Of a stretch of 64,000 nt of DNA, positions 3,303 through 62,054 are shown piece after piece. Below the pieces are notes generated by a model. The model worked only from the letters and a program-made list of their open reading frames with translations. It did no database searches and was not told the origin of the DNA. The stretch covers positions 111,929 through 175,928 of the forward strand of contig SCQK01000013.1 in assembly GCA_004321885.1 (NCBI GenBank), written 5' to 3'. The translations under genes and the position numbers were made by a program. How positions within the stretch are numbered: position 1 is the stretch's first letter; each line of letters starts with the position of its first letter. This DNA is from Patescibacteria group bacterium (GTDB taxonomy: Bacteria > Patescibacteriota > Patescibacteriia > Magasanikbacterales > GWA2-37-8).

Positions 3303-5405
3303 TTATGTATGGGATTGCTTCCCGCCAGAGGCGGGCAGGCGCTCTTCGCTCGCAATGACATTTTTTTTATGCCCCAAAAACATCCAATTGCCATACTCAT
3401 TGAACCAGCGGAAAACAATGCGGATATTGATGCGGGTAACGGTAATGGCCGTAAACATGGAGACCAACGTGCCGATGGCCAACGTGACGGCAAAGCCCTG
3501 CACAAACCCGGTGCCAAACCATATAAGGAATCCGCAACTGATAAGGGTGGTGATATTGCTGTCGCGAATGGACGGCCAGGCGCGCGCGAACGACTCCTCG
3601 GCCGCCGACAGCAAACTGCGGCCATTGCGTAATTCTTCTTTCATGCGCTCAAACACCAGCACATTGGCGTCTACGGCCATACCGATAGACAAAATAAAGC
3701 CGGCAATGCCCGACAAGGTTAAAGTTACTCCGATAATCTTAAAGATGGCCAAACTTAAAAGGGCGTAGACGAGCAGAGAAACATTGGCCAACAAGCCGGG
3801 AAAGCGATAATAGCCAATCATGAAAAGCAAAACTAAAATCAAACCAACAATGCCGGCGAAAAAACTTTTACGCAGATACTCGGAACCCAAAGTGGCGTCC
3901 ACTTTCTGCTGGCTGATGAGGTCTACGGCCACGGGCAAAGCGCCGGCGTTGAGGCGCTGGGACAAAAGCCGCGCTTCGCCGAGCGTGAAACTGCCCGAGA
4001 TGACGGCCGAGCCGCTGGTGATGGCTTCGTTCACGCGCGGAATGCTAATGGGCTCACCGTCCAAAAATATGGCCACGTTCTTGCCCACATTGCGCGTGGT
4101 GATATCGCCGAACAATTTTGTGCCTTCTTCGTTGAATTGCAGATTGACCTGCACTTGTCCGGACTGATTATCCTGGGTTACCTCGGCGCGCTTGAGCTGC
4201 TTGCCCGACAAGCCCGAGCTTTTCCATTCCTCGGCCGGCGGCACGACATCGGAAGCCTGTTTAGTCTTCACGTACACGCGGGCCACCTCATATTCCCTGG
4301 ACGGCTTTTCATCTTTTTTGTAAATAATGTGAAAACCGAATTTTGTTTCCACCGCATTGGACACAGCGCCCTTGGGCATCGCGCCCGCCGCCTCTTCAAA
4401 CTCCGGCACCATTTGGCCCTTCTTAAACCAGCCCAGCTCTTCGCCGCGCACTTCCAATTTTTTATCCGGAGAATATTGCTGTACCAACTGGGCAAAATTG
4501 GCGGGCGACGCCTGGGCTTTTATTTCACCGGCTCTTTGGCGGGCCTGGTCTTTGTTCAATTTGCTTTCACACCCTTCGGCGCCGGCATAACAAACCAACA
4601 AGTGCGACGCGTTTATCATTTTTTCGCCGTCGCGGCCGGAGAGCCGTTTTACCACGTTCAAGCCGTCAAAACTTTTCACCAGGGTTTTGCCCGCCTGGCC
4701 GTCTTTGGCTTTCTCGGCCCAAGCAAAAATTTCCGGATAAATTTCTTTGGTAATAAATCCCAGATTGCCGCCCTTGTCTTTGCTGGCCTGGTCTTCGGAA
4801 TATTGGGCCGCGATTTTGCCGAAATCGGCCCCGGGTTTTAGGGCCGCGGTTAGAGCTGTTTTGGCTTTTTTATCGGCCGCGCTGTTAAAAACGTCCAGGT
4901 CTTTTTTTTCTTGGGGTGTCAAATCGCGGGCCGGGTCGTGATTTTCTTCCTTAAATTCCAGTATCGGAGTTTCGCCAATCATTTTGATGGCCTGATTGAC
5001 ATCGGTAACGCCGGGCAATTCCACAATCACGCGATAATCGCCGCCGACCTTGGTGGTTTGCACCAATGGCTCGGCCACGCCCAGGCCCCCGCGCACGCGC
5101 CGCTCTATCACGTCGCGCACGCCTTCCACGGCGTCGCCGCGGTCGCCTTCGGGAATGGTTTCTGTTTTGGCCTGATAAACCAAATGCGCGCCGCCCTGCA
5201 AATCCAGGCCCAGATTAAAGCCCTTATCCGGCAAGCGGGGCAAACCGATGTTGGCCGCGTTGTTGAGCCAGTCTATGCCGCGGTTGGCGAACGCCGGCAA
5301 AACAATAAGCAGGGTGGCAATGGCCAAAGCGACCACGCCGGCCGCGTGCCATTTTAATTTTTTCGCCGACGAAACCTTGTTGGAAATTTTTACTGCCATA
5401 AACAC
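3303..5405 (-). CDS. secD: protein translocase subunit SecD carrying two parvulin-type PPIase domains in the periplasmic P1 head
   Basis: 700 aa. N-terminal TM plus the P1 head (GLDLQGGAHLVYQA) and a C-terminal six-TM SecD core. Two rotamase-like segments lie in between: a weaker one (FGKIAAQYSEDQASKDKGGNLGFITKEIYPEIF) and a clear one (ASHLLVCYAG...ELGWFKKGQMVPEFEEAA...KFGFHIIYK). Confidence 0.85.
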   Translation of the reverse strand: MFMAVKISNKVSSAKKLKWHAAGVVALAIATLLIVLPAFANRGIDWLNNAANIGLPRLPDKGFNLGLDLQGGAHLVYQAKTETIPEGDRGDAVEGVRDVIERRVRGGLGVAEPLVQTTKVGGDYRVIVELPGVTDVNQAIKMIGETPILEFKEENHDPARDLTPQEKKDLDVFNSAADKKAKTALTAALKPGADFGKIAAQYSEDQASKDKGGNLGFITKEIYPEIFAWAEKAKDGQAGKTLVKSFDGLNVVKRLSGRDGEKMINASHLLVCYAGAEGCESKLNKDQARQRAGEIKAQASPANFAQLVQQYSPDKKLEVRGEELGWFKKGQMVPEFEEAAGAMPKGAVSNAVETKFGFHIIYKKDEKPSREYEVARVYVKTKQASDVVPPAEEWKSSGLSGKQLKRAEVTQDNQSGQVQVNLQFNEEGTKLFGDITTRNVGKNVAIFLDGEPISIPRVNEAITSGSAVISGSFTLGEARLLSQRLNAGALPVAVDLISQQKVDATLGSEYLRKSFFAGIVGLILVLLFMIGYYRFPGLLANVSLLVYALLSLAIFKIIGVTLTLSGIAGFILSIGMAVDANVLVFERMKEELRNGRSLLSAAEESFARAWPSIRDSNITTLISCGFLIWFGTGFVQGFAVTLAIGTLVSMFTAITVTRINIRIVFRWFNEYGNWMFLGHKKNVIASEERLPASGGKQSHT

Positions 5406-5415
5406 AATTATTATG

Positions 5416-5440
5416 TCATTCCGGGCTTGACCCGGAATCT
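5416..5440. repeat. GTCATTCC...GGAATGAC-family palindromic hairpin between tRNA-Val and the secD start
   Basis: gtcattccgggcttgacccggaatc. The same arm motif recurs at about a dozen other sites in the window. Confidence 0.7.
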
Positions 5441-5522: not shown

Positions 5523-5609
5523 GTCCGCATCTCGGCTATGATTTTACCCCTTTTTGCCTTTTTTGGCAAGAACCATTGTCATTCCTGCGCAAGTAGGAAT
5601 CCACAATCA

Positions 5610-5912
5610 TTACGATTCGTCCAAAATTATCTTTTCTTTGAATCCTCCCCTGTCTTCGGCCTTGGTGGCGCGTATTTTTTCCAGCTCAACGGCGTCATAA
5701 CCCTTGAAATCGCGCATGGAATTGAGAACTTCGTAAAGGTCGCCCAAATCATGTGGCGATTCCGAGGAAAAAAACTCTCCCAGCTCCTCCAGCAGTTTTT
5801 CCTTCAACTTTTTCCAGTATTCCTCACTGCCGGCGATATGGTACACCGCCTGTCCGCCTTTGGCTTTGATGATTTCGGGAATCTTGTCCCGCACGAGTTT
5901 ATTGTATTTCAT
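5610..5912 (-). CDS. MazG-like nucleotide pyrophosphohydrolase (small all-alpha NTP-PPase)
   Basis: 100 aa, MKYNKLVRDKIPEIIKAKG...EELGEF...DLGDLYEVL. This matches the MazG/HisE-type NTP-PPase signature, including the EExxE-like acidic motif. Confidence 0.65.
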   Translation of the reverse strand: MKYNKLVRDKIPEIIKAKGGQAVYHIAGSEEYWKKLKEKLLEELGEFFSSESPHDLGDLYEVLNSMRDFKGYDAVELEKIRATKAEDRGGFKEKIILDES

Positions 5913-5924
5913 ATAATCTAATCG

Positions 5925-6010
5925 CTGTCATTGCGAGCGAGCCACAAGCGAGCGCGGCAATCCCTTCCGTGTTTGGGATTGCTTCGCCCCTTCGGGGCTC
6001 GCAATGACAT
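5925..6010. repeat. composite nested palindrome (GTCATTGCGAGCGAGCC ... GGCTCGCAATGAC with an inner GCAATCCC/GGGATTGC hairpin)
   Basis: Direct reading. The outer 17-bp arms at 5927-5943 and 5996-6009 are inverted repeats. A near-identical element occurs at 47827-47920. Confidence 0.8.
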
Positions 6011-6039: not shown

Positions 6040-6267
6040 TTATCGCTTCCAACATGAAACGAACTTCAAATTTCCTATTTCAACGCCCAGTTCCTCCGTC
6101 GCTTCTCGTTTCACCGTTTCCATGGGGCTTTCTCCAAACTCCACGTGTCCGCCGATGGAACCATAACAACCGTCCGCGTGCGCGCCCTTGCGTTTGGCGA
6201 GCAAGGTCTTGCCATCTTTTATTATCACCGCCCCGGCGCCCACTTTGATTATTTTATCTTCCGACAT
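6040..6267 (-). pseudogene. NUDIX hydrolase remnant, ends about 12 aa after the Nudix box
   Basis: MSEDKIIKVGAGAVIIKDGKTLLAKRKG...GGHVEFGESPMETVKREATEELGVE is a clear Nudix box (GX5EX7REUXEEXGU). The protein then stops after KFVSCWKR, directly abutting the 5925-6010 palindrome. The upstream 80 codons of the ORF-track ORF lie in GC-rich non-coding-looking DNA. Confidence 0.5.
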
Positions 6268-6329
6268 AATTGAAACTTCGAACTTCTGATTATTTGACTT
6301 AAAAATATGATTATGGTAGGGTGTTTTTG

Positions 6330-6596
6330 CCGTCAGAGAGTGCTCGAAGGCCCTACTCCGGAAGACGTCCCGGAGCCAGGAGGAGAAGCCGTCCCACCAT
6401 TCCATGCCGCCGGCCACAGTCCGGCCGCGAGGTGCGCGCGCTCCGCTTCCAAAGGGGCATCTCGAAAACTGTGCCGGGGTGGTTTGGCGTCTTTGCGCCA
6501 GATTGCACCCCACATGGACAGCGTCCTCCTACGGGGAGGACTATGGTTGCTTAGCGCCATCAACCCTCTCTGACGGCGCTTTTTTTTTATTTGTAT
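6330..6596 (+). ncRNA. GC-rich (~64%) structured element closed by an 11-bp terminal helix and followed by a U-run; class unknown
   Basis: gccgtcagagag at 6330-6341 pairs with ctctctgacggc at 6568-6579. There are internal hairpins such as gtcctcc-tacg-gggaggac, and a T9 run at 6588-6596. ORFs are open on both strands in all frames, as expected for non-coding GC-rich DNA. Confidence 0.3.
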
Positions 6597-6824: not shown

Positions 6825-6912
6825 CAACAATCGTCATCCTGAACTTGTTTCAGGATCCCCACTGTCCAATTCGCCGACTCGCTCGATCGGAGATGCCGAA
6901 ACAAGTTCGGCA
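6825..6912. repeat. pair of palindromic hairpins (CCTGAAC-TTG-TTTCAGG and GCCGAA-CAAGT-TCGGC, ending CATGAC)
   Basis: Direct reading. A related hairpin ending ...TTCAGCATGACAT occurs at 7237-7275. Confidence 0.7.
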
Positions 6913-6937: not shown

Positions 6938-7231
6938 TCACTCCCATTCGTCGCTCAAGTCTTTCAAAGTGGGATTAAGTCCTTTTACTAAATTTATTTT
7001 CCACTGACGATGCCAATTTTTGATTTGTTTCTCTCTGTTAATTGCGTCACGTGGATCCAAAAAAACTTCGTAATAAACTAACTTTTTCAGATTATACTGT
7101 TTTGTAAATCCCTCATTGATTCCATTTTTATGTTCTTCAAGCCGACGTTCTAGATTGTTCGTTATACCTACATATAAAACCGTGTTGATGATGTTTGTTA
7201 AAATATACACATAAAATGTTTTCCCCTCCAT
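6938..7231 (-). CDS. GIY-YIG nuclease family protein (small stand-alone)
   Basis: 97 aa. MEGKTFYVYIL...VLYVGITNNLERRLEEHK gives GIY..YVG motifs plus the conserved R and E. AT-rich (~38% GC). Confidence 0.85.
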   Translation of the reverse strand: MEGKTFYVYILTNIINTVLYVGITNNLERRLEEHKNGINEGFTKQYNLKKLVYYEVFLDPRDAINREKQIKNWHRQWKINLVKGLNPTLKDLSDEWE

Positions 7232-7273
7232 ACGATTTGCGATTGGAGATGCTGAAATAAATTCAGCATGACA

Positions 7274-10117
7274 TTACTGGCCGTGACAGCGCTTGTATTT
7301 CTTCCCGCTGCCGCAAGGGCAAGGGTCGTTGCGGCCCACCACTTTGCCGGCCTCGTCGCGCACTTTTTTCCCGGCCGGCGCGGCGCCGTTGTCGCTGGTC
7401 TTGCTGGCCCCGCTAAACATCAGATTCCCCGCCTGCATCACCGACGGCGCTATCTGTATTCCCAAATTTACTTTATAAACCAAATACACCACTTCTTTTT
7501 GAATGTAATTAAGCAGTTCGTTGAACATCCGGTAGGTTTCTTTTTTGTATTCCACCAGCGGGTCGTGCTGGGCATAGCCGCGCAGGCCAATGCCGGTGCG
7601 CAAATAATCCACGGCCACCAAATGTTCCACCCACAGATTGTCTATGGCGCGCAGCAATACTTGTTTTTCTATCTCGGCCATCATCTCGGGCGGGGCTTGT
7701 TTGACCAGCAGTTCCTCGTATTTATACTTGGCCGTTTCTATCAAAAATTCTATGAGTTGCGTCCTAATCGTAACATCATCAACCCGCCCGCCCACCGGCG
7801 GGGCGCCAAATTCTCCGATTTTTTTCTTTTCATCGTCAGACAGCGGGAAAATGGTCGTCATTGTTTCGGCAATTTCTTTCACATTCCAGTCACTGCGGTC
7901 TTCGGCGTTGGTATGGAACGAAACCACCTCTTCAATTTCCTGTTCTATCATTTCCAAAATCATGACGCGCAAATTTTTTACCCCCTCTTTCGTCTCCCCC
8001 TTATCAAGGGGGAGAGAAGCGGTGGACGTCTCCGCCATATCACGAGAGAGAGAAGCGGTTGATTCAAAAGCGCGCAATACCTCGCGCCGTTTGCCGTAAA
8101 TCACCTCGCGGTGCTTGTTGAGCACGTCATCGTACTCCAGCAAATGTTTGCGCGTGTCAAAATGCAAACCCTCCACTTTGCGCTGGGCGCTTTCTATAAT
8201 GCGCGTAATCATCCCCTGCTCTATGGGCATGTCATCTGGCACTTTAAGGGCGTTCATTACCCCGCGTATTCTGTCGCCGGCAAAAATACGCATCAGGTCG
8301 TCTTCGGTGGAAAGGAAAAATTGCGACTGCCCCGGGTCGCCCTGGCGCCCGCTGCGGCCGCGCAACTGGTTGTCTATACGCCGGCTCTCGTGGCGCTCGG
8401 TGCCCAGCACAAACAAACCGCCGGCCGCGCGCACGCGCCCGGCTTCTTCGGGTACAGGCGGATTACCGCCCAAAATTATATCCACTCCCCTGCCGGCCAT
8501 GTTGGTGGCCAGGGTCACGCGCCCGGGCTGGCCGGCCTGCGCGATTATCTCGCCCTCGCGCTCATGATTCTTGGCGTTTAGAATTTCATGCGCTATTCCC
8601 TCTCTTTGCAAATGCAAACTCAAGGCCTCGTTTTTCTCCACTGATACCGTGCCTATCAAAACCGGCTGGCCCTTGGCCTGTAATTCTTTTACCATCTGGG
8701 CGATGGCCTTGTGCTTGGCCTCTTCGGTTTTATAAATCCTGTCCGGAAAATTCGTGCGCTGGCTGGGTTTGTTCGGCGGAATTACCACCACTTCCAGTTT
8801 GTAAATTTTGCCGAACTCTTCGGCCTCGGTGACGGCCGTGCCGGTCATGCCCGACAGCTTTTCGTACAAACGGAAATAATTTTGAAAAGTAACCGTGGCC
8901 ATGGTCTGACTTTCATGTTGAATGACCACGTTTTCTTTGGCTTCTATGGCCTGATGCAAGCCCTCGCTATAGCGGCGGCCCGGCATTTTGCGGCCGGTAA
9001 ATTCGTCCACTATGAGCACCTCGCTGTTTTCCACGATATAGTCGCGGTCGCGCAAGAAAAGCGTCTGCGCCCGCAAAGCCTGCTCCACGTGGTGCACGGT
9101 ACGCACCCCGCCCTCGGCGTAAATATTGTCCACGCCCAGCCATTTTTCCATTTTAGCGATGCCGGCTTCGGAAAGCGTGGCCGAGCGCATTTTTTCGTCT
9201 ATGTTAAAGTCCTCGTTTTCTTTCAAGCGGCGCACCAGCTCGGCGAATTTGTAATACATGTCGGCCGCTTTTTCGGCCGGCGCGGAAATAATCAAGGGGG
9301 TGCGGGCTTCGTCTATTAAAATGGAGTCAACCTCGTCCACGATGGCGTAAAAAAACGGCCGCTGTACCATCTCGCTCAAATTTTGCACCATGTTGTCGCG
9401 CAAATAATCAAAGCCATATTCGTTGTTGGTGCCATAAGTGACGTCGCAGCCGTAGGCCTCTTGGCGCGAGCAGGGTTCCAAAAATTCCGTTTCCACTTTG
9501 TACATTCCTTTGGCGTCGCGTTCTTTGTCTGCTTCACTGCCCTCCTGTAACCCCACCCCCTGCCACCACACCAAAGATTTTGGTGTGGTGGCCTGCCCAT
9601 CCCCTAATAGGGGAGGGGTTTTTGCGTAGCGAAAAGAAACACCAAGCTGTTGAATCACGCCCACGCTCAATCCCAAAGCATCATATATCTGCCCCATCCA
9701 CACAGCGTCGCGTTTGGCCAAATAATCATTCACAGTCACCACGTGCACTCCCCTGCCGGCCAAGCCGTTTAGATACACAGGCAAGGTAGCCACCAGGGTT
9801 TTGCCCTCGCCAGTGCCCATCTCAGCGATAGCGCCGCTATGCAAAGCCATGCCGCCCTTTAGCTGGACGTCAAAATGGCGCATACCAGTCAAACGTTTTG
9901 ATGTTTCGCGCACCACGGCAAACGCCTCGGGCAAAATATCGTCCAGGGTGGCGCCGTCGGCCAAACGCTTTTTGAACTCATCGGTTTTGCCCCGCAACTG
10001 TTCCAAACTCAAAGACGCCATCCCGCTTTCCAGGGCATTGATTCTTTCCACGAGCGGCTTGTATCCGGCAATCACTTTCGCATTCGGGTCGCCAAAAATT
10101 CTGCTAAAAAAAGACAT
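7274..10117 (-). CDS. secA: preprotein translocase ATPase SecA (start at MSFFSRIFGD; the ORF track extends to 10228)
   Basis: N-terminus MSFFSRIFGDPNAKVIAGYKP. Walker A GEGKT, the DEAD-like motor, YGTNNEYGFDYLRDNM, and the C-terminal zinc finger CPCGSGKKYKRCHG. Two in-frame repeat-element insertions sit at 9563-9620 and 7978-8045. Confidence 0.95.
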   Translation of the reverse strand: MSFFSRIFGDPNAKVIAGYKPLVERINALESGMASLSLEQLRGKTDEFKKRLADGATLDDILPEAFAVVRETSKRLTGMRHFDVQLKGGMALHSGAIAEMGTGEGKTLVATLPVYLNGLAGRGVHVVTVNDYLAKRDAVWMGQIYDALGLSVGVIQQLGVSFRYAKTPPLLGDGQATTPKSLVWWQGVGLQEGSEADKERDAKGMYKVETEFLEPCSRQEAYGCDVTYGTNNEYGFDYLRDNMVQNLSEMVQRPFFYAIVDEVDSILIDEARTPLIISAPAEKAADMYYKFAELVRRLKENEDFNIDEKMRSATLSEAGIAKMEKWLGVDNIYAEGGVRTVHHVEQALRAQTLFLRDRDYIVENSEVLIVDEFTGRKMPGRRYSEGLHQAIEAKENVVIQHESQTMATVTFQNYFRLYEKLSGMTGTAVTEAEEFGKIYKLEVVVIPPNKPSQRTNFPDRIYKTEEAKHKAIAQMVKELQAKGQPVLIGTVSVEKNEALSLHLQREGIAHEILNAKNHEREGEIIAQAGQPGRVTLATNMAGRGVDIILGGNPPVPEEAGRVRAAGGLFVLGTERHESRRIDNQLRGRSGRQGDPGQSQFFLSTEDDLMRIFAGDRIRGVMNALKVPDDMPIEQGMITRIIESAQRKVEGLHFDTRKHLLEYDDVLNKHREVIYGKRREVLRAFESTASLSRDMAETSTASLPLDKGETKEGVKNLRVMILEMIEQEIEEVVSFHTNAEDRSDWNVKEIAETMTTIFPLSDDEKKKIGEFGAPPVGGRVDDVTIRTQLIEFLIETAKYKYEELLVKQAPPEMMAEIEKQVLLRAIDNLWVEHLVAVDYLRTGIGLRGYAQHDPLVEYKKETYRMFNELLNYIQKEVVYLVYKVNLGIQIAPSVMQAGNLMFSGASKTSDNGAAPAGKKVRDEAGKVVGRNDPCPCGSGKKYKRCHGQ
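9563..9620. repeat. CCACCACACCAAA...TTTGGTGTGGTGG hairpin plus CCCCTAATAGGGGAGGGG hairpin inserted in frame in secA (near-identical copy at 30724-30777)
   Basis: Encodes ...TPPLLGDGQATTPKSLVWWQGVGLQEG... in a SecA loop that is about 10 aa long in E. coli. Confidence 0.85.
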
Positions 10118-14133: not shown

Positions 14134-14395
14134 AGCCGATGAGCGGATTTGAACCGCTGACCACCTCCTTCGCTTATACTTTATATTGCTATAAAGACTA
14201 GACTGTATCTTTGGCTTATCCTTTACCGGACTTAGCCACCCTTGTCAGTCGTTCGCCCGCGATTAGCGGGACGGTCTTGTCCCAATTTATTTAGGGATAT
14301 TAACCGTTATTCGGGATTCACCACGATGTTTCCATCGTGATGGGCGAGGCTTGCGGCTCACCATGGAGGTGCTCTACCAACTGAGCTACATCGGC
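14134..14395 (-). tRNA. tRNA-Thr (anticodon GGU, tentative) interrupted by a 189-nt group I intron in the anticodon loop
   Basis: Exon 1 at 14360-14395: GCCGATG-TA-GCTC-AGTTGGTA-GAGC-A-CCTCC-ATGGT. Exon 2 at 14134-14170: AA-GGAGG-TGGTC-AGCGG-TTCAAAT-CCGCT-CATCGGC-T. Acceptor and anticodon stems pair perfectly across the insertion. The spliced anticodon loop is AUGGUAA. Confidence 0.75.
14171..14359 (-). mobile_element. group I intron (ORF-less) in tRNA-Thr
   Basis: The 5' exon ends in U and the intron ends in G. Contains CACGATG-GAAA-CATCGTG (GNRA hairpin), CCCGC-TAATC-GCGGG, a P7-like GACTG/CAGTC pair, and AAAGATACAGTCT resembling the conserved group I S element. Confidence 0.6.
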
Positions 14396-14400
14396 ATTTT

Positions 14401-15060
14401 CTAATTTTTTTTATTTTCCAAAATCCTCATTAATTCATCTCTCATTTTTTTATTATGGTAATAAACTGTTAAAACTCCATGTCTACTTTTTTCGCGATAA
14501 GTACCTTTTCTAACAGACATTGTTATCGTGCTTTTGTAAAATTGATTTTTATTTACCTTTATTTGCCCCTTCCAAAACCTTAGCGCTTCAGTCACTGAAA
14601 TGTCATTGAATAACTGAAGGCTAAACTTAAGGTCTTTTCTTCTAATGGAAAAAAATTTAACTAAAAAGTCAATAAATTTCTTGACCAATCTTGGGTCAGT
14701 ATTTCCCAACCTAACTGTGCATTTATCCGCTTTTGTTCCCTCCCCCCAGTATAACCCAAGTCCAAAACCATATAAAATTCCCTCTTTTAATGTATGTGGA
14801 TACTTTATGACAAATGGATCACCGTTTGGGTTATTTTTTTTGTAAATAGCTTCACTGATAGATCTACACGTAATCGAATATTTTTCCATCCAATAACGTA
14901 TTTTATTTACTGAACATTCGAAAATATTGGCAATTTCTTGTGCCGACTTTCCCTGATTTTGATATAATTTTTGCAAAACACCTTTGCTTATCATATCACA
15001 AATTATATCATAGCCGACTGAATAGTACAAGTAACCCCAAGTAGATAATATGGTTGTCAA
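14401..15060 (-). CDS. LAGLIDADG-type homing-endonuclease-like protein with an N-terminal HTH, free-standing between two intron-bearing tRNA genes
   Basis: 219 aa, TTG start 4 nt after AAGG. HTH segment GKSAQEIANIFECSVNKIRYWMEKYSI. Single LAGLIDADG-like motif LYGFGLGLYWGEGTK followed by the typical ...GNTDPRLVKKFIDFLVKFF helix. AT-rich (~33% GC). Spacers to the flanking tRNAs are 5 and 9 nt. Confidence 0.55.
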   Translation of the reverse strand: MTTILSTWGYLYYSVGYDIICDMISKGVLQKLYQNQGKSAQEIANIFECSVNKIRYWMEKYSITCRSISEAIYKKNNPNGDPFVIKYPHTLKEGILYGFGLGLYWGEGTKADKCTVRLGNTDPRLVKKFIDFLVKFFSIRRKDLKFSLQLFNDISVTEALRFWKGQIKVNKNQFYKSTITMSVRKGTYREKSRHGVLTVYYHNKKMRDELMRILENKKN

Positions 15061-15069
15061 TGAACCTTG

Positions 15070-15363
15070 TGGGTGGAGTAGGATTCGAACCTACGAAGGC
15101 AGAGCCAGCAGATTTCATTTATCCAAAAGTTTCCTTCTAGCATGGACTATATCTTTATCCTATCCGCCAATCTGGCCGATAGGATACTCTGGTATCTAGT
15201 CTCTACGGCGCCCCCGACTTTGCCGGGGTTCCCACGGTATTAGCATGCCCGCCAGTTGGCGGATTTAGCTTTCACCGTTATCCCAGAGAGTTCATCCTAA
15301 AGTTACCTTTAGGAGCTGCGTTTCAACACAGTCTGCTCCAGTTGACCACTTTGGTATCCACCC
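15070..15363 (-). tRNA. tRNA-Tyr (anticodon GUA, class II) interrupted by a 212-nt group I intron
   Basis: Exon 1 at 15328-15363: GGGTGGA-TA-CCA-AAGTGGTCAAC-TGG-A-GCAGA-CTGT. Exon 2 at 15070-15115: AAA-TCTGC-TGGCTCTGCCTTC (long variable arm)-GTAGG-TTCGAAT-CCTAC-TCCACCC-A. Spliced loop CUGUAAA. Confidence 0.8.
15116..15327 (-). mobile_element. group I intron (ORF-less) in tRNA-Tyr
   Basis: Carries AAAGATATAGTCC (group I S element), GAGACTAGATACC (R/P7-like) and AAATCCGCCAACTGGCGGG (Q/P4-like). The 5' exon ends in U and the intron ends in G. Confidence 0.75.
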
Positions 15364-15382
15364 ATCTTCTTAAATTTTCTTG

Positions 15383-16465: not shown

Positions 16466-17266
16466 TTACTTTTCCCTCCCTTTTATAAGGGGAGGGGCAG
16501 GGAGGGGTAGAACAGCATTCTTCGCGATGTCCAGCCATGTTTCCAGCTTGGCCGAAGCGCCCCCCACCAGCACGCCGGAAACGTTCTCGCATTTCAGGTA
16601 GCCGGCGATGTTTTCCGGCCGCACGCTGCCGCCGTACAAAATTATTACAGCAGCCGCAGGCAAAAGTTCAACGGCCAATTTATCTATAAAATTGTGCGCC
16701 ACGGCGCAGGCCTCCGTATCATCGCAAGCGTTGCCGGTGCCAATGGCCCATACCGGTTCGTAGGCGATAAAAAGCGGCCTTTCGTCTTCTTTCGGCCAGG
16801 CCAAATTTTGCAAAGCGGCCCGAAGTTGGATTTCCAAAACTTCCTCTGTCTTACCCTCTTCTCTTTCCTTGGCTGTCTCGCCCACACACAGCACGGGCGT
16901 GAGTCCGGCTGCCAAAATCGCTTCCAATTTTTGCCTCACTTCATGATTGCTTTCGCCAAATTGATGCCGGCGCTCGGAGTGGCCGACCAGCGCGTATTCG
17001 CAACCGGCCGCCTGAAACATCTGGGCCGAAACTTCGCCGGTGTAGCCGCCCTTGTCCACCCAATAAACGTTTTGCGCGCCCACGCCGATGCCGGCGTCGC
17101 GCAGTACCTGGCCAGCGCTGTATAAAGAAAGCGCGCTTGGAAAAACAGTCATTTTCACGTTCGTCGGAAATTTTTCCGCCTCGCCGGCCAAAGCGTTGGC
17201 CAAAATATTGCTCTCGTCAAAATCCAAATACATTTTCCAGTTGGCGAAAAGATAAATTTGTTTCAT
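16466..17266 (-). CDS. tpiA: triose-phosphate isomerase with a repeat-encoded C-terminal tail
   Basis: FANWKMY, GHSERR, AYEPVWAIGTG and YGGSV motifs. The ATG overlaps the TGA of the upstream M16 gene (ATGA). The last 14 aa (LPLPAPPLIKGREK) are encoded by the CCCTCCC..GGGGAGGGG hairpin element at 16470-16510. Confidence 0.92.
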   Translation of the reverse strand: MKQIYLFANWKMYLDFDESNILANALAGEAEKFPTNVKMTVFPSALSLYSAGQVLRDAGIGVGAQNVYWVDKGGYTGEVSAQMFQAAGCEYALVGHSERRHQFGESNHEVRQKLEAILAAGLTPVLCVGETAKEREEGKTEEVLEIQLRAALQNLAWPKEDERPLFIAYEPVWAIGTGNACDDTEACAVAHNFIDKLAVELLPAAAVIILYGGSVRPENIAGYLKCENVSGVLVGGASAKLETWLDIAKNAVLPLPAPPLIKGREK

Positions 17267-18651
17267 ACGAGTAATTTCAAAATTTCTTCTTTTGATTTCG
17301 GCCCGATTACCGCCAACCGCATTCGCTTCCAATCAAAAAATCTTCGTGCCGCGCCACGCACCTGCCCGGCCGTAACGCGCTCTATTTTTTCCAACTGCTG
17401 TTCCGGCGTCTCTATTTTATCAGCGAACCAGTGCTGGCGCGCGAACCACTCGGCCACGGCGCTGGAATTTTCCATGGATAGCGCCATGCGGCCCGAAATG
17501 TTTGTTTTGGCGTCGTCTAATTCTTTTTTGCTGATGCCTTTATCCGCAATTTTTTTCAGTTCGCTTTTAATTACCGAAAGCGCTTCGCCCAGCCGGTTGG
17601 AATCCAAACCAGCGTTAATGGTGATAACGCCGGTTTCGTTGTGGCTGACCCCGCCGGCGTGAATCATATAGGCCAATCCCCTTTTCTCGCGCACCTCCAC
17701 GAACAAACGTGAACTCATGCCGGAGCCGAGCACGGTAAGCAATACCGCGTTCGCGTACCTGATAGGATCGTTGTAGGCGAAACCCGCGAACCCCATCACA
17801 ACGTGCGACTGATCTATTTTTCTCTGTTCAACGCTAACCCGTTTTTCCAACGGCAATTCGCCCGCCGGCCAGCTGAATTTTATAAAATTTTCTTTGTTGA
17901 AATACCCCTCCTTCCCGCTCCCCTTTATAAGGGGAGGGAAACTATCGGCAGTTCCTCCCCCTTGATAAGGGGGAGGCTCGCCACCACACCAAATGCTTTG
18001 GTGTGGTGGCGAGGAGGGGGTATTCGCGAAATACTTCGCGGCCAACTTTTTTATTTTTTCCCGCGGCGCGTTGCCCGACACCGCCAGCGCCATATTCGCG
18101 GGCGTGTAAGCATTTTTGTAATACGCGAACAGCTCGTCCCGCGTAATATTTTTTACTGTCTCGGCCGTGCCGGCCACATCCCGCCCCAGTGGATTGCCGC
18201 CAAACACCGTGCGGTCAAAAACCAGCTCCACGGCCATGCTCGGATTATCTTCATACATCTTTATTTCTTCGGCAATCACTCCCCGCTCTTTGGTGATTTC
18301 TTTTTCGTCAAAAGTGGAATCAAAGAGCATGTCCGCCAAAATATCAAAAGCCAATTCCACCCGCCGGCCGTCTATTTTAATATAATAGCCGGTATAATCC
18401 TTGTAGGTAAAGGCGTTATAATCCGCGCCCACCGCGTCCAACTCGCGCGAAATATGCTGGGCCGTGGGACGTTTTTTTGTTCCTTTGAACATCAGATGCT
18501 CCACAAAGTGCGAAGCCCCGGAAATTTTCGCTGTCTCATAGCGCGAACCCACCGGCAATAAAACCATCACCGTGACGGCTTTGGTGCCGCCCGTCGGCGC
18601 CGTGATTAGCGACAAGCCATTTTTTAATTTTGATAGCCGATGCATAATCAC
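17263..18651 (-). CDS. M16-family zinc peptidase (insulinase-like) with an in-frame repeat-element insertion
   Basis: HFVEHLMFKGT gives the HxxEH zinc motif. 462 aa. Residues ...PPHQSIWCGGEPPPYQGGGTADSFPPLIKGSGKEG are encoded by a three-hairpin composite at 17920-18010. Confidence 0.85.
   Translation of the reverse strand: MIMHRLSKLKNGLSLITAPTGGTKAVTVMVLLPVGSRYETAKISGASHFVEHLMFKGTKKRPTAQHISRELDAVGADYNAFTYKDYTGYYIKIDGRRVELAFDILADMLFDSTFDEKEITKERGVIAEEIKMYEDNPSMAVELVFDRTVFGGNPLGRDVAGTAETVKNITRDELFAYYKNAYTPANMALAVSGNAPREKIKKLAAKYFANTPSSPPHQSIWCGGEPPPYQGGGTADSFPPLIKGSGKEGYFNKENFIKFSWPAGELPLEKRVSVEQRKIDQSHVVMGFAGFAYNDPIRYANAVLLTVLGSGMSSRLFVEVREKRGLAYMIHAGGVSHNETGVITINAGLDSNRLGEALSVIKSELKKIADKGISKKELDDAKTNISGRMALSMENSSAVAEWFARQHWFADKIETPEQQLEKIERVTAGQVRGAARRFFDWKRMRLAVIGPKSKEEILKLLV
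17920..18010. repeat. composite hairpin train (CTCCCCTTTATAAGGGGAGGG + CCTCCCCCTTGATAAGGGGGAGG + CGCCACCACACCAAATGCTTTGGTGTGGTGGCG) inside the M16 ORF
   Basis: Direct reading. All three are perfect or near-perfect palindromes, and the reading frame is maintained through them. Confidence 0.85.
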
Positions 18652-20382: not shown

Positions 20383-21306
20383 TTATAATACAATCTTATC
20401 TATTTGCTTGCTTAAATTTTTTCCACTAGACATAAACTTTAACGTTGCGAGCAAATCTGTTTGTGTTTGTGACAACTTTTCACCTAAAATTTTATCTTGT
20501 TTGAATTTACCCGTATTTTCGCCATTTTTTTTCCGTTCTTTAAATGTTTTTGAGACGAAATGTTTGCCTAATTCCTCCAATAACGTCGCTCTTTCATTCT
20601 CACAATTTTTTATCCTTTCTTCGGCCATTGAATTATAATCCTCCGAAATTTCTATTCCTAAATAATCGCAACCCAATAATTTAGCCGCAACTAAAGTTGA
20701 ACCGCTTCCCGAATATGGATCCAAGACAACCCCTCTTTTTCCGTCTAAAACCGAAAAAATTGCTCTTGCCGGCAGAATCATCGGAAATGGCGCGGGATGA
20801 TTCACACATCGTTCCGGTGGAAATCGCCAAATAGACGTTAGTAAAGCATGTCTTGAGGCCAACTCCTCACCAATTTTATTACCTGCGGGCTTATGCAACC
20901 AGTAAATACGTTCATCTACCTGCCAGAATCGCCATCCTCTGATATTGGCTGCTATCATTCTATCCCAAATTATTTCCTGGCGCATGGTCCAATCCGATTT
21001 AGATAGCCAACTAATTGGATGTATCATCTCACCTTTTTCCCATCTCACTTTATGATTATAAAAAAAAGATCCGCCCGGTTTCGTTATACGAAAAATTTCG
21101 TTTAAAATTTCAACCTGTTCGTTTTGATACTCTTCTTCATTCTTGGCGTCACTAATCGCATTATACAAAACATTTTTTACAAGCCAACCCTTATTTTTTT
21201 CCTTTTTATTATAAGGGGGTGAAGTAACGCAAACATCTATGATATTTGAATCAATCGTCTTTAAAATATCTAATGTATTACCTTGTAAAATCTGATTGAC
21301 TCTCAT
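20383..21306 (-). CDS. site-specific DNA methyltransferase (beta-class N6A/N4C, DPPY) with a ~70-aa C-terminal extension
   Basis: DVCVTSPPY (motif IV) precedes the AdoMet motif DPYSGSGSTLVAAKLLG, in beta-class order. AT-rich (~33% GC). The start overlaps the upstream ORF's stop (ATGA). Confidence 0.8.
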   Translation of the reverse strand: MRVNQILQGNTLDILKTIDSNIIDVCVTSPPYNKKEKNKGWLVKNVLYNAISDAKNEEEYQNEQVEILNEIFRITKPGGSFFYNHKVRWEKGEMIHPISWLSKSDWTMRQEIIWDRMIAANIRGWRFWQVDERIYWLHKPAGNKIGEELASRHALLTSIWRFPPERCVNHPAPFPMILPARAIFSVLDGKRGVVLDPYSGSGSTLVAAKLLGCDYLGIEISEDYNSMAEERIKNCENERATLLEELGKHFVSKTFKERKKNGENTGKFKQDKILGEKLSQTQTDLLATLKFMSSGKNLSKQIDKIVL

Positions 21307-21980
21307 TTTGCCTTTTCGGTTAAAAAATTATAAAATTTTCCGTTAAAATTGGAACGATTATCTTTTAGAGCCTTTACGTTAATATAAACGATTTTTAATT
21401 TTTTGCAATTTTGATAATCCCGAAAACCAAAGGAAGCACTTCGTAAAAAAGTCCCCTTCTCTCGACTCTTATTTTTGAATCTTTTCTTTAATTTAAGCTT
21501 CAAACAGCTTGTAAATCCCTCGTTACAAAAAGGAAATTCCAAAATATAAATTAATTGCCCGTCAATAAAACCGCTAACCAAAATGTTTAGATTTGCCGCT
21601 AAATCTTTTTTAAGCCGCTCCGGTGTATAATCAGTGAAATTGCCACCTCCGTCAAGTTTTCTCGGCGTCTTACGATTATTATTATCGCCGGTACAAATAT
21701 TTCTCGGTTTTGCTTCACAAGCAATAAATTCACCGCCGATACTCACACTTTGTTTAAAACCATTGTAACCTATTTTTTTGTTGCTGTGCGTATAGCCAGC
21801 CAAAGTTATCGTAATGAATTCTCTAATAGTAGAAGAATTTTTATCATTTATATAAATGGTAAGCAAATCATTAAATAACGATATTAAATCATCTTTAGAT
21901 TTATCCAACAAAAGAGCATTCAACTCCTTATGCGGTTTGGTGGCGTATGTAATTAAAATATCAGATAACGCGTTATTCAT
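21303..21980 (-). CDS. putative Type II restriction endonuclease, partner of the methyltransferase
   Basis: 225 aa, no recognisable family. Same AT-rich composition as the methyltransferase and translationally coupled to it. The pair is inserted between the housekeeping genes glyS and frr. Confidence 0.45.
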   Translation of the reverse strand: MNNALSDILITYATKPHKELNALLLDKSKDDLISLFNDLLTIYINDKNSSTIREFITITLAGYTHSNKKIGYNGFKQSVSIGGEFIACEAKPRNICTGDNNNRKTPRKLDGGGNFTDYTPERLKKDLAANLNILVSGFIDGQLIYILEFPFCNEGFTSCLKLKLKKRFKNKSREKGTFLRSASFGFRDYQNCKKLKIVYINVKALKDNRSNFNGKFYNFLTEKAK

Positions 21981-24709: not shown

Positions 24710-24804
24710 ATAAACATTTTACCAAAAAAACACAGAACTGGCAATGACAGCGACATTGCTACCCCTCCCAACCCTCCCCTTATCAAAGGGAGGGATTATA
24801 GGGA

Positions 24805-30224: not shown

Positions 30225-30704
30225 TCAGGACAGGCTCTTAAAAAGGGGCGGGCTGGATGGGGTCACCCGCGCTTCGCCGCTGTATTGGGGGGCGATGTAG
30301 CGGCCGGGTTTAGCTCTTTTGAAACGCGCCAGCGCCTGGGCCGGAGTCCAGCCGGGTTCCAGAGAGATTACCGGGATTTTCAGGGCGTAGGCCATGGTGT
30401 TGCCGAACGTAGCGGCCAGACGACTGGCGGTAAAACTCTCGGCGCCGCTCACCACCCCGATGCCTTTAATTTTTTTCAGCGGCAATTTTTGTTTTTTCAG
30501 GAATTTGTCAAATGCTTCCACGATGGATGTCCTATTACCACTAGATTCCCCCGTACTTAGTCGGGGGAATGACAATCGGGCTCCACAGGCCTTCGGCACT
30601 ATGGAGCCAGCGATAATTCCACAGGCCTTCGGCACTATGGAGCCAGCGATAATTCCGGAAACGCAAATAGCCCCTTCTTGGTTATTATCTACAATAAGAA
30701 ACAT
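30225..30704 (-). CDS. tsaB: TsaB (YeaZ)-like t6A-biosynthesis partner protein carrying an in-frame tandem-repeat insertion
   Basis: MFLIVDNNQEGAICVS...GIGVVSGAESFTASRLAATFGNTMAYALKIPV aligns with the TsaB N-terminal domain (compare GPGSFTGVRIGIGIAQGLA). A 2 x 36-bp tandem repeat (GIIAGSIVPKAC twice) and a hairpin replace the first beta-hairpin. Confidence 0.6.
   Translation of the reverse strand: MFLIVDNNQEGAICVSGIIAGSIVPKACGIIAGSIVPKACGARLSFPRLSTGESSGNRTSIVEAFDKFLKKQKLPLKKIKGIGVVSGAESFTASRLAATFGNTMAYALKIPVISLEPGWTPAQALARFKRAKPGRYIAPQYSGEARVTPSSPPLFKSLS
30583..30654. repeat. perfect 36-bp x 2 tandem repeat inside the tsaB-like ORF
   Basis: cacaggccttcggcactatggagccagcgataattc at 30583-30618 repeats exactly at 30619-30654. 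Each copy is itself hairpin-forming (ggctccacag / ctatggagcc). A related sequence is at 45485-45540. Confidence 0.9.
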
Positions 30705-30785
30705 AAAAAAAACCCACCCCCTGCCACCACACCAAAATCTTTGGTGTGGTGGCCTGCCCCTCCCCTAATAGGGGAGGGTAGCTCG

Positions 30786-31394: not shown

Positions 31395-31506
31395 TCTCCC
31401 CCTCTCCTTTTAGAAGGGGAGGGACAGGGAGGGGTAAATTATCAATTGCGCTATTCTTTAATACATAGTATAATAATTACACTTCAAAAAGTAAAGATGC
31501 GCCAAT

Positions 31507-34674: not shown

Positions 34675-34942
34675 ACTATGAATATAATCTCATTCGCTCA
34701 GAACTGAATTAATAAATTAATTCAGTTCGCTCGCTCATTTCGATTATAAACAAAAAATCTGTGTTTCCACAGACTAATCCCGCCAAAGGCGGGCAAGAGC
34801 GCAAATCGACCTATACTGTCATTCCGGCTTCCGAGCCGGAATCCAGTTCTTTTTTGCACCTCGGCAGGTAATTAAGCCCTTTCGGACACCTGCTGTCTAT
34901 GGTGACAATAATATACAGGAAGCATAAAAAAATGTCAAGAAT

Positions 34943-41355: not shown

Positions 41356-42171
41356 CTAAACCCCACCCTTTGTCTCCCCCCTTACAGAGGAGGGATGTGA
41401 TGTTTGCCCCAATTTACCCCAAAACAGCGCGAAAGTCAATCCGGCGATGAGCGCCAGCATGCCCCACTGGGCCGGGGTAAAATAAAAATAGCGCGCGTCG
41501 CTGACCGGCAAATCAGTGGCGCGTAAAAAATCAAAAAAGAACCGGACCGCCGCGTAAGACAAAACCGAATAAAGCGCGACCAATCCCCAGCGCTTTTTTA
41601 TGAGGCGAGTAAATAATAGATAAAAAACAGCAAATAACGTAAATCCTAAAATAGATTCCAGCAAGCCCAAATCAAAACGCGCGCCGTCTGGTAAATTCAC
41701 GGCCAGAAAAAAATTTGACAGCCTCCCGGGATGCAAATGCGTGAAAAAACAACCCAAACGCCCAACCCCCCACCCCAACCATAAACTTAAAGCGCCGATG
41801 TCCAAATACGGCTTGATTTCCCGACAAGTAAATTTTTTTATTTTTACAAACAAATACAGGGCAACGCCGGCGCCGAAAAATCCGCCCAGCGAAGACGCCC
41901 CGCCCTGCCAAAATTTCAAAATATCGCCCGGGTTCTGCGCGTAATACGCGCTGTCGTAAAAAATCACGTGAAAAACACGCGCCATAATCAACGCGCCAAT
42001 GAGCATCCAGACCCCCATATCCAAAATCACTTCGCCGGACAAAAAATATTTCTTCGCCAGCTTGTAGCCGAATAAAACCGCGGCCAAAATTCCCAGCGAG
42101 ACGAAAAGACCCCAAACATGAATAGTGAGAGGGCCTAAGGAAAAAGATTCAAAGTGAAAGTATGGAAGCAT
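41356..42171 (-). CDS. lgt: prolipoprotein diacylglyceryl transferase with a repeat-encoded C-terminal tail
   Basis: FSLGPLTIHVWGL...Y..G...GR and the Lgt TM pattern. The final ~15 aa overlap the hairpin element at 41360-41400. Confidence 0.85.
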   Translation of the reverse strand: MLPYFHFESFSLGPLTIHVWGLFVSLGILAAVLFGYKLAKKYFLSGEVILDMGVWMLIGALIMARVFHVIFYDSAYYAQNPGDILKFWQGGASSLGGFFGAGVALYLFVKIKKFTCREIKPYLDIGALSLWLGWGVGRLGCFFTHLHPGRLSNFFLAVNLPDGARFDLGLLESILGFTLFAVFYLLFTRLIKKRWGLVALYSVLSYAAVRFFFDFLRATDLPVSDARYFYFTPAQWGMLALIAGLTFALFWGKLGQTSHPSSVRGETKGGV

Positions 42172-42243
42172 AATACCCCCTCCTCTATCCTCCCCCTAAA
42201 AGGGGGAGGAAGTGTTAAAGCCCACCCCCCTTAGATGGAAATT

Positions 42244-45373: not shown

Positions 45374-45544
45374 CAGTAATATTTCTACAATTTTTCAAAC
45401 ATTGTGGAAAATATTAAGCCGGACAGAGATTCCTCGGCTTCGCCTCGGAATAACAATCTACTGGATTCCGGCTCGTGGGCCGGAATGACAGCTGGGCTCC
45501 ACAGCCCCGACTGAGTCGGGGACTATGGAGCCAGCAATTGACAA

Positions 45545-49249: not shown

Positions 49250-49375
49250 GAAGACATTTTACAATAAAAAATCTATAAAAACAACCCCCCACCATAAGGG
49301 TGGGGGGTTAAGCCCCGCAGGGCTTCTATCAAACTAACTTCCTGGATTCCGGATCAAGTCCGGAATGACAAGTTA

Positions 49376-54536: not shown

Positions 54537-55076
54537 TTATTCTTCTAAAAGCTCTTTTAATTTTTTTATGCCCCTATGCAGAGTAACGCGCACCGCTATC
54601 TTGCCCTTGCCCAAGATTTCGGCGATTTCGGCGATTTCCAATCCATCCACATAGCGCAGGGTGACGGCCTCGCGGTATTCTTGTTTTAATTGTTTCAGCC
54701 CCCCCACTATTCTTTCGGCTTCCATTTTTACGCCCAGCTGTTTTGTCCACGCGCCCTGGTCGCCCAATTCCATCTCGCCGATGGCTATGGCCCCGACCTG
54801 GCGATTTTTGGCGCGATACAAATCAATAATCGCGTTTCTGGCCAGTTTGTAGAGCAAGCCGCTGAAACTCTCTATTTTTTTTTGCTCTTTGGTATAATGC
54901 CAGGCTTTGAGAAAAACCTCGGAAGTGATGTCTTCGGCTTCTTCGTGGCCCGCTACTTTAAAAAATATAAACCGATAGATTCTTTTGGCGTACAAATCAT
55001 AAAGCCTGGCGAAAGCTTCCGGGTCGCGCTTGGTTTGCAGTTTGTAGAGCAGTACCTTTTCGTTTAGCTTTGGCAT
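54537..55076 (-). CDS. ECF-subfamily RNA polymerase sigma-70 factor
   Basis: Region 2 (FARLYDLYAKRIYRFIFFKV...AEDITSEVFLKAW) and region 4 HTH (VTLRYVDGLEIAEIAEILGKGKIAVRVTLHRGIKKLK). Confidence 0.85.
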   Translation of the reverse strand: MPKLNEKVLLYKLQTKRDPEAFARLYDLYAKRIYRFIFFKVAGHEEAEDITSEVFLKAWHYTKEQKKIESFSGLLYKLARNAIIDLYRAKNRQVGAIAIGEMELGDQGAWTKQLGVKMEAERIVGGLKQLKQEYREAVTLRYVDGLEIAEIAEILGKGKIAVRVTLHRGIKKLKELLEE

Positions 55077-62009: not shown

Positions 62010-62054
62010 TCCAGCCCGCCTTTAGTCCCAGCGAAAGCTGGGATGGAATCTAAT

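Follow-up and report, generated by a model that had tools for sequence, protein, structure and literature searches.

Short palindromic repeats lie in frame within essential genes of a Magasanikbacteria genome

Short palindromic repeats of at least five families are scattered through a 64-kb stretch of a Magasanikbacteria genome (GenBank assembly GCA_004321885.1, contig SCQK01000013.1, positions 111,929 to 175,928 of the forward strand; the whole stretch is referred to as the window, and all coordinates are those of the window), and about one gene in seven hosts such a hairpin repeat without a break of its reading frame, including the essential gene secA. We propose, with a probability of roughly 0.8, that these are selfish palindromic repeats that are kept within genes only where they are in frame, free of stop codons and located in loops or tails of the encoded protein. 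This behaviour itself is known from the Rickettsia palindromic elements (RPEs); what is new is the phylum and, in part, the element families.

Results

Palindromic element families of the window

The window has a G+C content of 50.5% and represents the 64 kb seen of a metagenome-assembled genome (MAG). Our catalogue comprises 38 palindromic copies of 29-92 nucleotides (nt), which fall into at least five families, here named A to E (Table 1), and together cover 1503 nt, i.e. 2.3% of the window; some copies are nested within others. Perfect hairpins, defined by stems of 9 bp or more and loops of 3-8 nt, occur 26 times as compared to 1.45 +/- 1.0 times in Markov shuffles, and the longest perfect palindromes in element DNA reach 17 bp. 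All three motif counts exceed chance by far, confirming that the motif families are real: there are 13 matches to family B half-sites (1.9 expected), three strict matches to CCCTCCCC..GGGGAGGG hairpins of family A (0 expected; about 15 family A copies if relaxed ones are included) and 13 occurrences of GTCATTCC, the outer motif of family C (1.6 expected). A first-pass annotation of this DNA had counted at least three families and about 35 copies. Its element positions all hold elements, with small shifts of the boundaries, and the repeats themselves were borne out, the number of families being higher than the three it had named and some families being nested.

Only 16 of the 38 copies lie in coding DNA, although the coding fraction of the window is 87% (P = 7e-11), i.e. 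the elements are strongly depleted from genes. The host reading frames nevertheless continue through every intragenic copy, and frameshifts that would have broken the host open reading frames (ORFs) at the elements were not found. As the same DNA is also found between genes, in either orientation and in several frames, the DNA and not the encoded peptide is the repeated unit.

No Rfam family covers the elements, and the inserts match no intron family. However, elements were found inside an RNA that Rfam does describe. In the L10 leader (34743-34920, minus strand; RF00557, 53.6 bits) a family C hairpin at 34818-34844 constitutes an insertion relative to the Rfam model, and a family E hairpin lies at 34778-34795 within the same match, indicating that the elements also land in structured regulatory RNA.

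Two insertion sites in SecA

SecA of the window is 100% identical to the annotation of a public Patescibacteria MAG (P0001) and matches solved SecA structures with E = 8e-242. The best relatives are named Magasanikbacteria or Patescibacteria, the next best after the identical entry having 76-79% identity and mostly bearing the name Candidatus Magasanikbacteria. For comparison 80 secA loci were fetched from other Magasanikbacteria, of which 59 contained full genes that were aligned (n = 60 with the window).

Both element sites of SecA exceed the median length, and, as the first-pass annotation had stated, the frame is open at both. At site 1, which we take to be a loop of the first nucleotide-binding domain, the region between the motifs GVIQQ and EGSxxDKE comprises 34 amino acids (aa) as compared to a median of 19.5 aa (n = 60). 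The element encodes about 23 residues, which corresponds to a net gain of about 14 aa over the clade median; the addition of about 40 residues proposed earlier is thus too high, and the rest of the ~54-aa expansion relative to Bacillus subtilis SecA is conserved across Magasanikbacteria. The DNA of this site folds at -46.9 kcal/mol (folding z = -4.5). At site 2, presumably where the long scaffold helix meets the helical wing domain, the region following RREVLRAF comprises 30 aa as compared to a median of 20 aa (n = 60). A HMMER alignment with B. subtilis SecA breaks exactly at these two sites, residues 155-216 of the window protein facing eight residues of B. subtilis SecA and residues 682-713 facing two residues (1TF2).

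Next to the family A copy of site 2 the 12-nt sequence GAGAGAAGCGGT occurs as a direct repeat at 8012-8023 and 8048-8059, encoding STASL twice. As the two copies are 36 nt apart, part of this insert seems to have grown by a local 36-nt duplication.

The positions of the elements are not conserved among the 59 SecA orthologues; what is shared are tolerant sites, hypervariable in length, that are filled by different families. The sites of the relatives hold unrelated palindromes with strong folds: 13 site DNAs, including the two of the window, fold strongly (z < -3), as compared to 2 of 40 control secA segments. GTCAT...ATGAC delimits many of the inserts in relatives, which read V-I-P...G-N-D. 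Of eight such inserts, seven have a length divisible by 3 (102, 96, 96, 75, 192, 81 and 117 nt) and one has 107 nt, and all eight begin in one codon phase. In one relative (L018) a single palindromic element of ~100 nt is present at both SecA sites, encoding KSLLEEGREMLVNA[N/D]TSPTPPSRG. The two SecA sites are therefore hot spots across the phylum that have been struck independently by different families in other Magasanikbacteria. In addition, the peptide signature (K/Q)R(W/R)VSMDAT(Q/R)HDF recurs in other Magasanikbacteria at the insertion hot spots of two proteins, in SecA at site 2 (P0005) and in TsaB (P0249), which suggests yet another element family.

Further host genes

Pfam identifies the host genes as encoding SecA, triosephosphate isomerase (TPI; TIM), an M16 peptidase (Peptidase_M16 and M16_C), Lgt (LGT), an O-antigen ligase (Wzy_C and TPR) and an EamA transporter (EamA); in the tsaB-like host the Pfam match, to the TsaD family, is weak. 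Orthologues could be found by synteny around secA only for TPI and the M16 peptidase (three loci) and for Lgt (one locus).

The alignments show that orthologues lack the segments found in SecA (59 orthologues), the M16 peptidase (two), TPI (three), the TsaB-like protein (ten) and the ligase (16). The M16 peptidase has ~32 extra aa exactly at its two elements, neither of the two orthologues (L008 and L017) containing the segment, and its Pfam M16_C match spans 217 residues for a model of 180 positions. The C-terminal tail of TPI stems from an element, the three orthologues ending 12-13 residues earlier. The TsaB-like protein has 159 aa as compared to ~123 aa in the ten orthologues, i.e. 36 aa extra. 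Its nearest relative (L090) carries only a canonical NTS-like family C hairpin at the same site, and the A+B composite upstream of tsaB is absent from it. These three insertions are hence as the first-pass annotation had described them.

The remaining hosts agree with that annotation in part. In the O-antigen ligase the C and B copies are insertions: the C hairpin faces a 13-column gap in 16 of 16 orthologues and the B copy gaps of 10 + 1 columns, whereas the 92-nt element brings no net gain in length relative to the 16 orthologues. The EamA copy is in frame, being open in one of six frames, which is the frame in use, but there is little or no net gain in length as the loop is variable anyway. 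A copy can be recognized in the Lgt tail, the case for an insertion being weak as it relies on a single distant orthologue. The expectation that intragenic copies are always multiples of 3 nt holds for the reading frames, which are all kept, but not for the lengths of the elements (e.g. the 92-nt copy).

Table 1. Palindromic elements, their families and their host or neighbouring genes (coordinates of the window).
Feature	Position	Strand	Description
Family A			C-rich flank (T)ACCCC(T/A)CC(C), spacer of 3-5 nt, hairpin (T)CC(C)TCCCC-loop-GGGGAGG(G)
Family A, intergenic copies	42175-42210, 24772-24795, 31406-31436, 56010-56045, 57573-57607, 59686-59720, 62991-63028		
Family B			29-bp palindrome CCACCACACC: two 13-bp inverted repeats, 3-nt spacer, nothing else
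Family B, perfect copies	9563-9591, 17981-18009, 30724-30752, 48626-48654		CCACCACACCAAA-N3-TTTGGTGTGGTGG
Family C			GTCATTCC, variable but paired stem-loop, GGAATC(C)
Family C, long inverted pairs	47827-47918, 5937-6008		GTCATTGCGAG...CTCGCAATGAC
Family C, intergenic copies	5415-5439, 5578-5600, 5937-6008, 34818-34844, 45463-45489, 49344-49369, 55115-55152, 62005-62052		
Family D	30576-30660, 45491-45535		GGCTCCACAG-hairpin-CTATGGAGCC; adjoins C copies
Family E	in window		small, CCCGCC-N4-GGCGGG
secA	7274-10117	-	947 aa, host of two elements; translation open end to end
SecA site 1	9552-9618		family A with B nested in spacer; encodes TPPLLGDGQATTPKSLVWWQGVG
SecA site 1, details	9563-9591; 9559-9562 and 9592-9595		B core; CCTG direct repeats
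SecA site 2	7980-8016		family A, flank ACCCCCTC, hairpin TCTCCCCC-TTATCAA-GGGGGAGA; encodes SLPLDKGETKEGV
M16 peptidase insert	17905-18025		A copy 17905-17938; second A copy 17954-18025 with nested B core 17981-18009
TPI tail	16473-16509		family A, gives last 13 residues, LPLPAPPLIKGREK, just before stop codon
TsaB-like insert	30543-30660		family C hairpin 30543-30573, then two tandem 36-nt family D units
Intergenic A+B composite	30713-30778		just upstream of tsaB start; near-identical to SecA site 1 copy
O-antigen ligase, paired element	47827-47918		GTCATTGCGAG...CTCGCAATGAC, 92 nt, loop of variable length
O-antigen ligase, C hairpin	48051-48093		family C, adds 13 aa
O-antigen ligase, B copy	48626-48654		solo family B, adds 11 aa (33 nt)
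EamA transporter	62318-62355		family A copy, variable loop
Lgt C-terminal tail	41358-41392		degenerate family A copy
GIY-YIG nuclease gene	6938-7231	-	Ssn-like, 97 aa, single-domain; directly downstream of secA stop codon
SRM-like hairpin TGTCATGCTGAATTTATTTCAGCATCTCC	7245-7273	-	upstream of GIY-YIG gene, abuts secA stop codon
SRM-like hairpin TGTCATGCCGAACTTGTTTCGGCATCTCC	6917-6889	-	downstream of GIY-YIG gene
SRM-like hairpin GTCATCCTGAACTTGTTTCAGGATCCCC	6833-6860	+	inverted, downstream of GIY-YIG gene

Family B resembles a target-duplicating element

Family B consists of perfect palindromes of 29-31 nt, built from the 13-mer CCACCACACCAAA and its complement, and the CCACCACACC palindrome is nested within the CCCTCCCC family: three of the four perfect copies (SecA site 1, M16 peptidase, upstream of tsaB) sit in the spacer of a family A copy, the copy in the O-antigen ligase being solitary without surrounding A. 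Neither the loci of the relatives (1.4 Mb) nor viral contigs contain family B, which elsewhere was found as single copies in nine metagenome contigs. If these nine copies are combined with the four copies of the window, exact 4-nt direct repeats flank 8 of the 13 copies, the chance being ~1/256 per copy. The tetramers are of five kinds, CCTG (twice), TTTA (three times), TATA, CAGG and CAAG, all fitting YNNR. Family A copies without B served as a proxy for the empty site, and the CCTG that is doubled in A+B composites corresponds to their spacer (TCTG, TCTA or TTTA). As 29 bp plus 4 bp gives 33 bp, an insertion of family B adds 11 codons, just as seen in the ligase. Taken together, family B looks like a target-duplicating MITE (miniature inverted-repeat transposable element) of minimal size, judging from its termini and flanks. 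A parent insertion sequence (IS) with B ends was found neither in the window nor in 90 fetched loci or viral contigs.

Family A copies upstream of genes

Two of the intergenic family A copies, 42175-42210 and 62991-63028, are located directly upstream of the start codons of lgt and the EamA gene, respectively, and the G-rich arm of the lgt copy places AGGAGG 7 nt before the ATG. Besides the two arms, which are reminiscent of Shine-Dalgarno (SD) and anti-SD sequences, family A contains a third, competing C-rich copy, so that translational effects are possible. A function of family A as terminator was rejected upon inspection by eye, the hairpin lacking a subsequent U-run on the transcribed strand.

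Family C and a neighbouring GIY-YIG gene

Neisseria NTS, a 28-nt hairpin with the sequence CGTCATTCCCGCGMAVGCGGGAATCYRG, contains dRS3 and is part of a wider class of 'Ssn-related motifs' (SRMs) (PMC11893778). SsnA, a small GIY-YIG nuclease, recognizes and cuts NTS/SRM hairpins in single-stranded DNA; its gene is typically located between such hairpins (NTS-ssnA-NTS), and cleavage and binding reportedly depend critically on the 5' GTC tag and on the C that follows the palindrome (PMC11893778).

A similar arrangement is found directly behind secA (Table 1). A motif search revealed an ORF that matches the GIY-YIG family (PF01541, E = 1.4e-19) and in which Y9, Y20 and E67 have the same spacing as the residues mutated in SsnA, Y6, Y17 and E64. 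Around this gene lie three hairpins of the same design, having the form TGTCATGCYGAA...TTCRGCATCTCC. Among the secA loci of 80 relatives only one (L049) contains a homologue of the GIY-YIG gene, with 52% identity. This homologue has inverted CGTCATCCCCGCGAAAGCGGGGATC on its flanks, and the same locus has the most GTCATTCC copies among the relatives. Moreover, the hairpin at the TsaB site of L090 matches the NTS consensus at 27 of 28 positions; as compared to the copy in the window its termini are conserved and its inner stem is changed, but still paired. By its termini and its gene neighbourhood family C is thus a putative member of the NTS/SRM hairpin type, though most copies fail the published degenerate pattern. 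The gene is Ssn-like, and the encoded protein may act on the hairpins.

A further gene adjoins a family C copy. The match of a NUDIX ORF (6040-6513) to its Pfam model of 134 positions ends at position 70, and the paired family C element 5937-6008 follows directly, so that the gene may have been truncated at the element. In the vicinity, a small MazG-like gene (~5617-5916, minus strand) is hidden behind a spurious plus-strand ORF in the ORF list.

Reading frames and encoded peptides

Elements that are built to be free of stop codons were considered and rejected, as 136 of 198 element frames are open and 136 are expected, i.e. the class is not enriched for open frames; only the core of family B lacks a stop codon in all six frames. 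Family B reads PPHQSIWCGG in the M16 peptidase and TTPKSLVWW in SecA and the ligase, and family A reads LPLIKGE, PPPYQGG or SLPLDKGE. PPLIKG recurs in TPI, the M16 peptidase and EamA, and TTPK.LVWW in SecA and the O-antigen ligase. All of the ~9 internal insertions keep the frame and are devoid of in-frame stop codons.

Other features of the window

Group I introns appear to split two tRNA-like genes (~15070-15365 and ~14135-14395, minus strand), with a match to Rfam RF00028 of 61.7 bits at 15123-15335 and a weak one of 26.9 bits at 14179-14526. A 219-aa ORF between them (14401-15060) has no Pfam match and may encode a homing endonuclease. The SecD homologue (3303-5405, minus strand) has a PPIC-type peptidyl-prolyl isomerase domain (Rotamase_3, 2.1e-32) between the P1 N-terminal and head subdomains, and a family E hairpin (3320-3340) is located near the 3' end of its gene.

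An exact 29-nt direct repeat, AAAAATTTGTATATACTACTCTATACAAA, which contains an inverted repeat, is present at 55513-55541 and 55596-55624 in the long intergenic region upstream of a sigma-70-family gene (54537-55076) and may be an operator or promoter element. A 46-nt segment is nearly identical at 49765-49810 and 56587-56632, within two large ORFs (49376-53140 and 56189-57475) that have no Pfam matches. A two-domain LOG/lysine-decarboxylase-like gene (42244-43584) contains an internal duplication (42458-42669 and 43121-43332). At 20383-21980 (minus strand) an N6/N4 DNA methylase gene may form a restriction-modification pair with the ORF of 225 aa that comes next and overlaps it; this ORF has no Pfam match.

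Discussion

According to the explanation we favour, short palindromic repeats of several families, all non-autonomous, would have colonised a Magasanikbacteria genome, and copies of them would insert throughout it. Insertions into genes would mostly be lost, and those that survive would keep the frame, have no stop codons in the frame that is used and be located at tolerant surface loops or at C-termini, where they would be translated as Pro/Gly-rich peptides. The spacer of family A would be a favoured landing site for family B, and the GIY-YIG gene between the hairpins behind secA would represent a cognate-looking unit for family C. We infer from the sequences that the elements are mobile and that the inserts are located at the surface of their host proteins.

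Several points weigh against this scenario or parts of it. Pfam reveals neither a transposase nor a REP-associated tyrosine transposase (RAYT) among the ~50 ORFs of the window. The ends of the elements, as well as the net gains in variable loops, are approximate. We infer the translation of the inserts into peptides from their DNA, and the AlphaFold2 model of SecA (29-sequence alignment), in which the inserts are low-confidence coil, is poor overall (mean predicted local distance difference test, pLDDT, of 59). As to family C, the published degenerate SRM pattern matches a single copy of the window (30541-30574; 0.21 expected), the other copies falling outside the pattern due to differing stem lengths; thus it is from the termini, the architecture and the relatives that the NTS link is drawn. 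Moreover, the stem of the hairpins that flank the GIY-YIG gene differs from that of the common GTCATTCC copies, and the mobilisation of hairpins by their Ssn proteins is itself only a hypothesis (PMC11893778). Finally, the family C hairpin at the TsaB site is common to a relative with 75% identity, which may reflect tolerance or function, and family A, whose arms resemble SD and anti-SD sequences, may have a regulatory role.

Alternatively, the hairpins might be functional signals kept by the host, e.g. for mRNA stability or processing, for translational pausing or attenuation, as SD/anti-SD mimics or, as in Neisseria, as Ssn-controlled recombination barriers, the intragenic copies then being selected instead of just tolerated. 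The GGAGG- and CCTCC-like arms of family A, with the AGGAGG of 42175-42210 located 7 nt upstream of the lgt start, are in line with this idea, and so are the C copy inside the L10 leader RNA and the TsaB-site hairpin, which persists in a relative with conserved termini and an inner stem that is changed, yet paired; in addition, Neisseria NTS and SsnA modulate the integration of transforming DNA (PMC11893778). However, the copies have either orientation with respect to transcription and are found in every reading frame, coding DNA is strongly depleted of them, no U-runs follow the intergenic ones on the transcribed strand, and the SecA orthologues share tolerant sites with different families in them rather than element positions, so that we regard selected signals as unlikely. 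Intragenic hairpins might also remain untranslated, being either cut from the mRNA or bypassed by the ribosome. They are very stable, as exemplified by SecA site 1 (-46.9 kcal/mol), two tRNA genes of the window appear to carry group I introns, and intervening sequences in RNA genes are known from genomes of the candidate phyla radiation (CPR). Yet, splicing or bypass would put no constraint on the reading frame, whereas the ~9 internal insertions all keep it and have no in-frame stops, the probability of which is ~(1/3)^9 by chance; moreover, the length in nt is divisible by 3 for seven of the eight inserts in relatives, and no insert matches an Rfam intron family. Excision or bypass is therefore very improbable.

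The recurrence of PPLIKG in three proteins and of TTPK.LVWW in two could be taken to mean that the peptides are conserved and that the palindromic nature of their coding sequence is incidental. The reading-frame data already contradict this, as the same DNA is read in different frames to give different peptides, and, with more than half of the copies being intergenic and perfect DNA palindromes extending up to 17 bp, we give the idea hardly any credence. An artefact of assembly or binning, e.g. chimeric joins at repeats, has to be considered, since the sequence comes from a MAG and misassembly classically happens at repeats. The host genes, however, are in frame and homologous on both sides of each element, the same kind of insert is present in dozens of independent assemblies from different studies, and the elements are much shorter than sequencing reads, which leaves a negligible probability for such an origin.

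The selfish repeats proposed here resemble several known systems. RPEs are palindromes of multiple families that occur between genes and in frame inside unrelated housekeeping genes (Ogata et al. 2000 and 2002, as summarised in PMC10969869). The window matches this in that multi-copy palindromic families (38 copies, at least five families) are dispersed in the genome, that in-frame, non-truncating copies are present in SecA (two sites), the M16 peptidase, TsaB, the ligase (three sites), EamA and the TPI tail, and that the inserts would be read as extra peptides, presumably at positions where the fold tolerates them. The RPE-like behaviour postulated by the first-pass annotation, i.e. in-frame insertion into housekeeping genes whose orthologues do not have the segments, is thus corroborated. 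The systems differ in their hosts (Alphaproteobacteria versus Patescibacteria), in size (~100-150 nt versus 29-92 nt here, the GTCAT...ATGAC inserts of some relatives, with 96-192 nt, being nearer to RPE size), in their sequence families, as far as can be told, and in the nested B-in-A copies found here. Rickettsia is among the genomes rich in SRMs (PMC11893778), so that RPEs and family C may be linked at a deeper level.

The NTS/SRM hairpins and family C have several features in common: the outer GTCATTCC...GGAATC, as in the NTS with its 28 nt, the conserved 5' GTC(A/T)(C/T) tag together with the C directly after the palindrome, and the small single-domain GIY-YIG gene between hairpins, both in the window and in L049. 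For Neisseria, in contrast, the repeats have been described as surrounding genes and as acting on transforming DNA, and neither in-frame copies in essential genes nor Patescibacteria are mentioned in that work (PMC11893778). The view that none of the motif families had been described applies to A and B, for which no description was found in the literature searched, but not to C, which is of the described NTS/SRM type as far as its termini and neighbourhood indicate. Likewise, no paper in the literature searched describes in-frame insertion of hairpins in Patescibacteria.

MITEs that became fused to genes have been reported for Coxiella (QMITE1/2; PMC5896051) and, with the enterobacterial repetitive intergenic consensus (ERIC) and others, for enterobacteria (PMC10969869). 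Like these, the elements of the window are non-autonomous inverted repeats, and in family B the terminal inverted repeats are perfect and the target site seems to be duplicated; the tail of Coxiella EnhC that derives from an element has its counterpart in the TPI tail. Family B, however, is only 29 bp long with a 3-nt spacer as internal sequence, and insertions lie in the middle of essential proteins rather than mainly in hypothetical genes or at gene ends. Short GC-rich multi-copy hairpins, sometimes in inverted pairs, are also typical of repetitive extragenic palindromic sequences (REPs) and bacterial interspersed mosaic elements with their RAYTs (PMC3733652), and both kinds of repeat are thought to depend on an enzyme that recognizes single-stranded hairpins. 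REPs, though, are extragenic and have GTAG or CGTC tags, whereas many copies are intragenic here and the tag is GTCAT, and the enzyme encoded nearby is a GIY-YIG protein, no RAYT of the Y1 type being found among the ~50 ORFs of the window.

A bolder proposal, which we regard as tentative and on balance doubtful, combines these likenesses: Ssn/GIY-YIG-type hairpin elements, together with paired derivatives of them that lack the gene, might form an IS/MITE system that routinely writes peptides of 8-60 aa into essential proteins in Magasanikbacteria, perhaps in the CPR generally, with family B as the smallest target-duplicating transposable element seen so far (29 bp with a 33-bp footprint) and with RPEs possibly being of the same kind, an idea prompted by the shared GTCAT...ATGAC termini and by the abundance of SRMs in Rickettsia. 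If so, the 33-bp footprint of family B would be neutral to the frame and its core free of stop codons, so that it would never truncate a gene, and the system would be a main source of lineage-specific insertions and hypervariable loops in reduced genomes.

CPR bacteria have tiny genomes, and in their proteins there are often unexplained lineage-specific insertions, for which this locus provides one concrete source. The hot spots in SecA map where a core translocase tolerates insertions and may, in addition, serve as a marker for element activity across the phylum. The GIY-YIG neighbour ties the most widespread family to the Ssn nucleases that act on single-stranded DNA, and an in-frame lifestyle of Ssn-type hairpins in coding regions has, in the literature searched, not been reported before. 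Finally, inserts of this kind are of practical relevance, as for marker proteins of the CPR they can distort the calling of genes, the assignment of orthologues and phylogenomic alignments.

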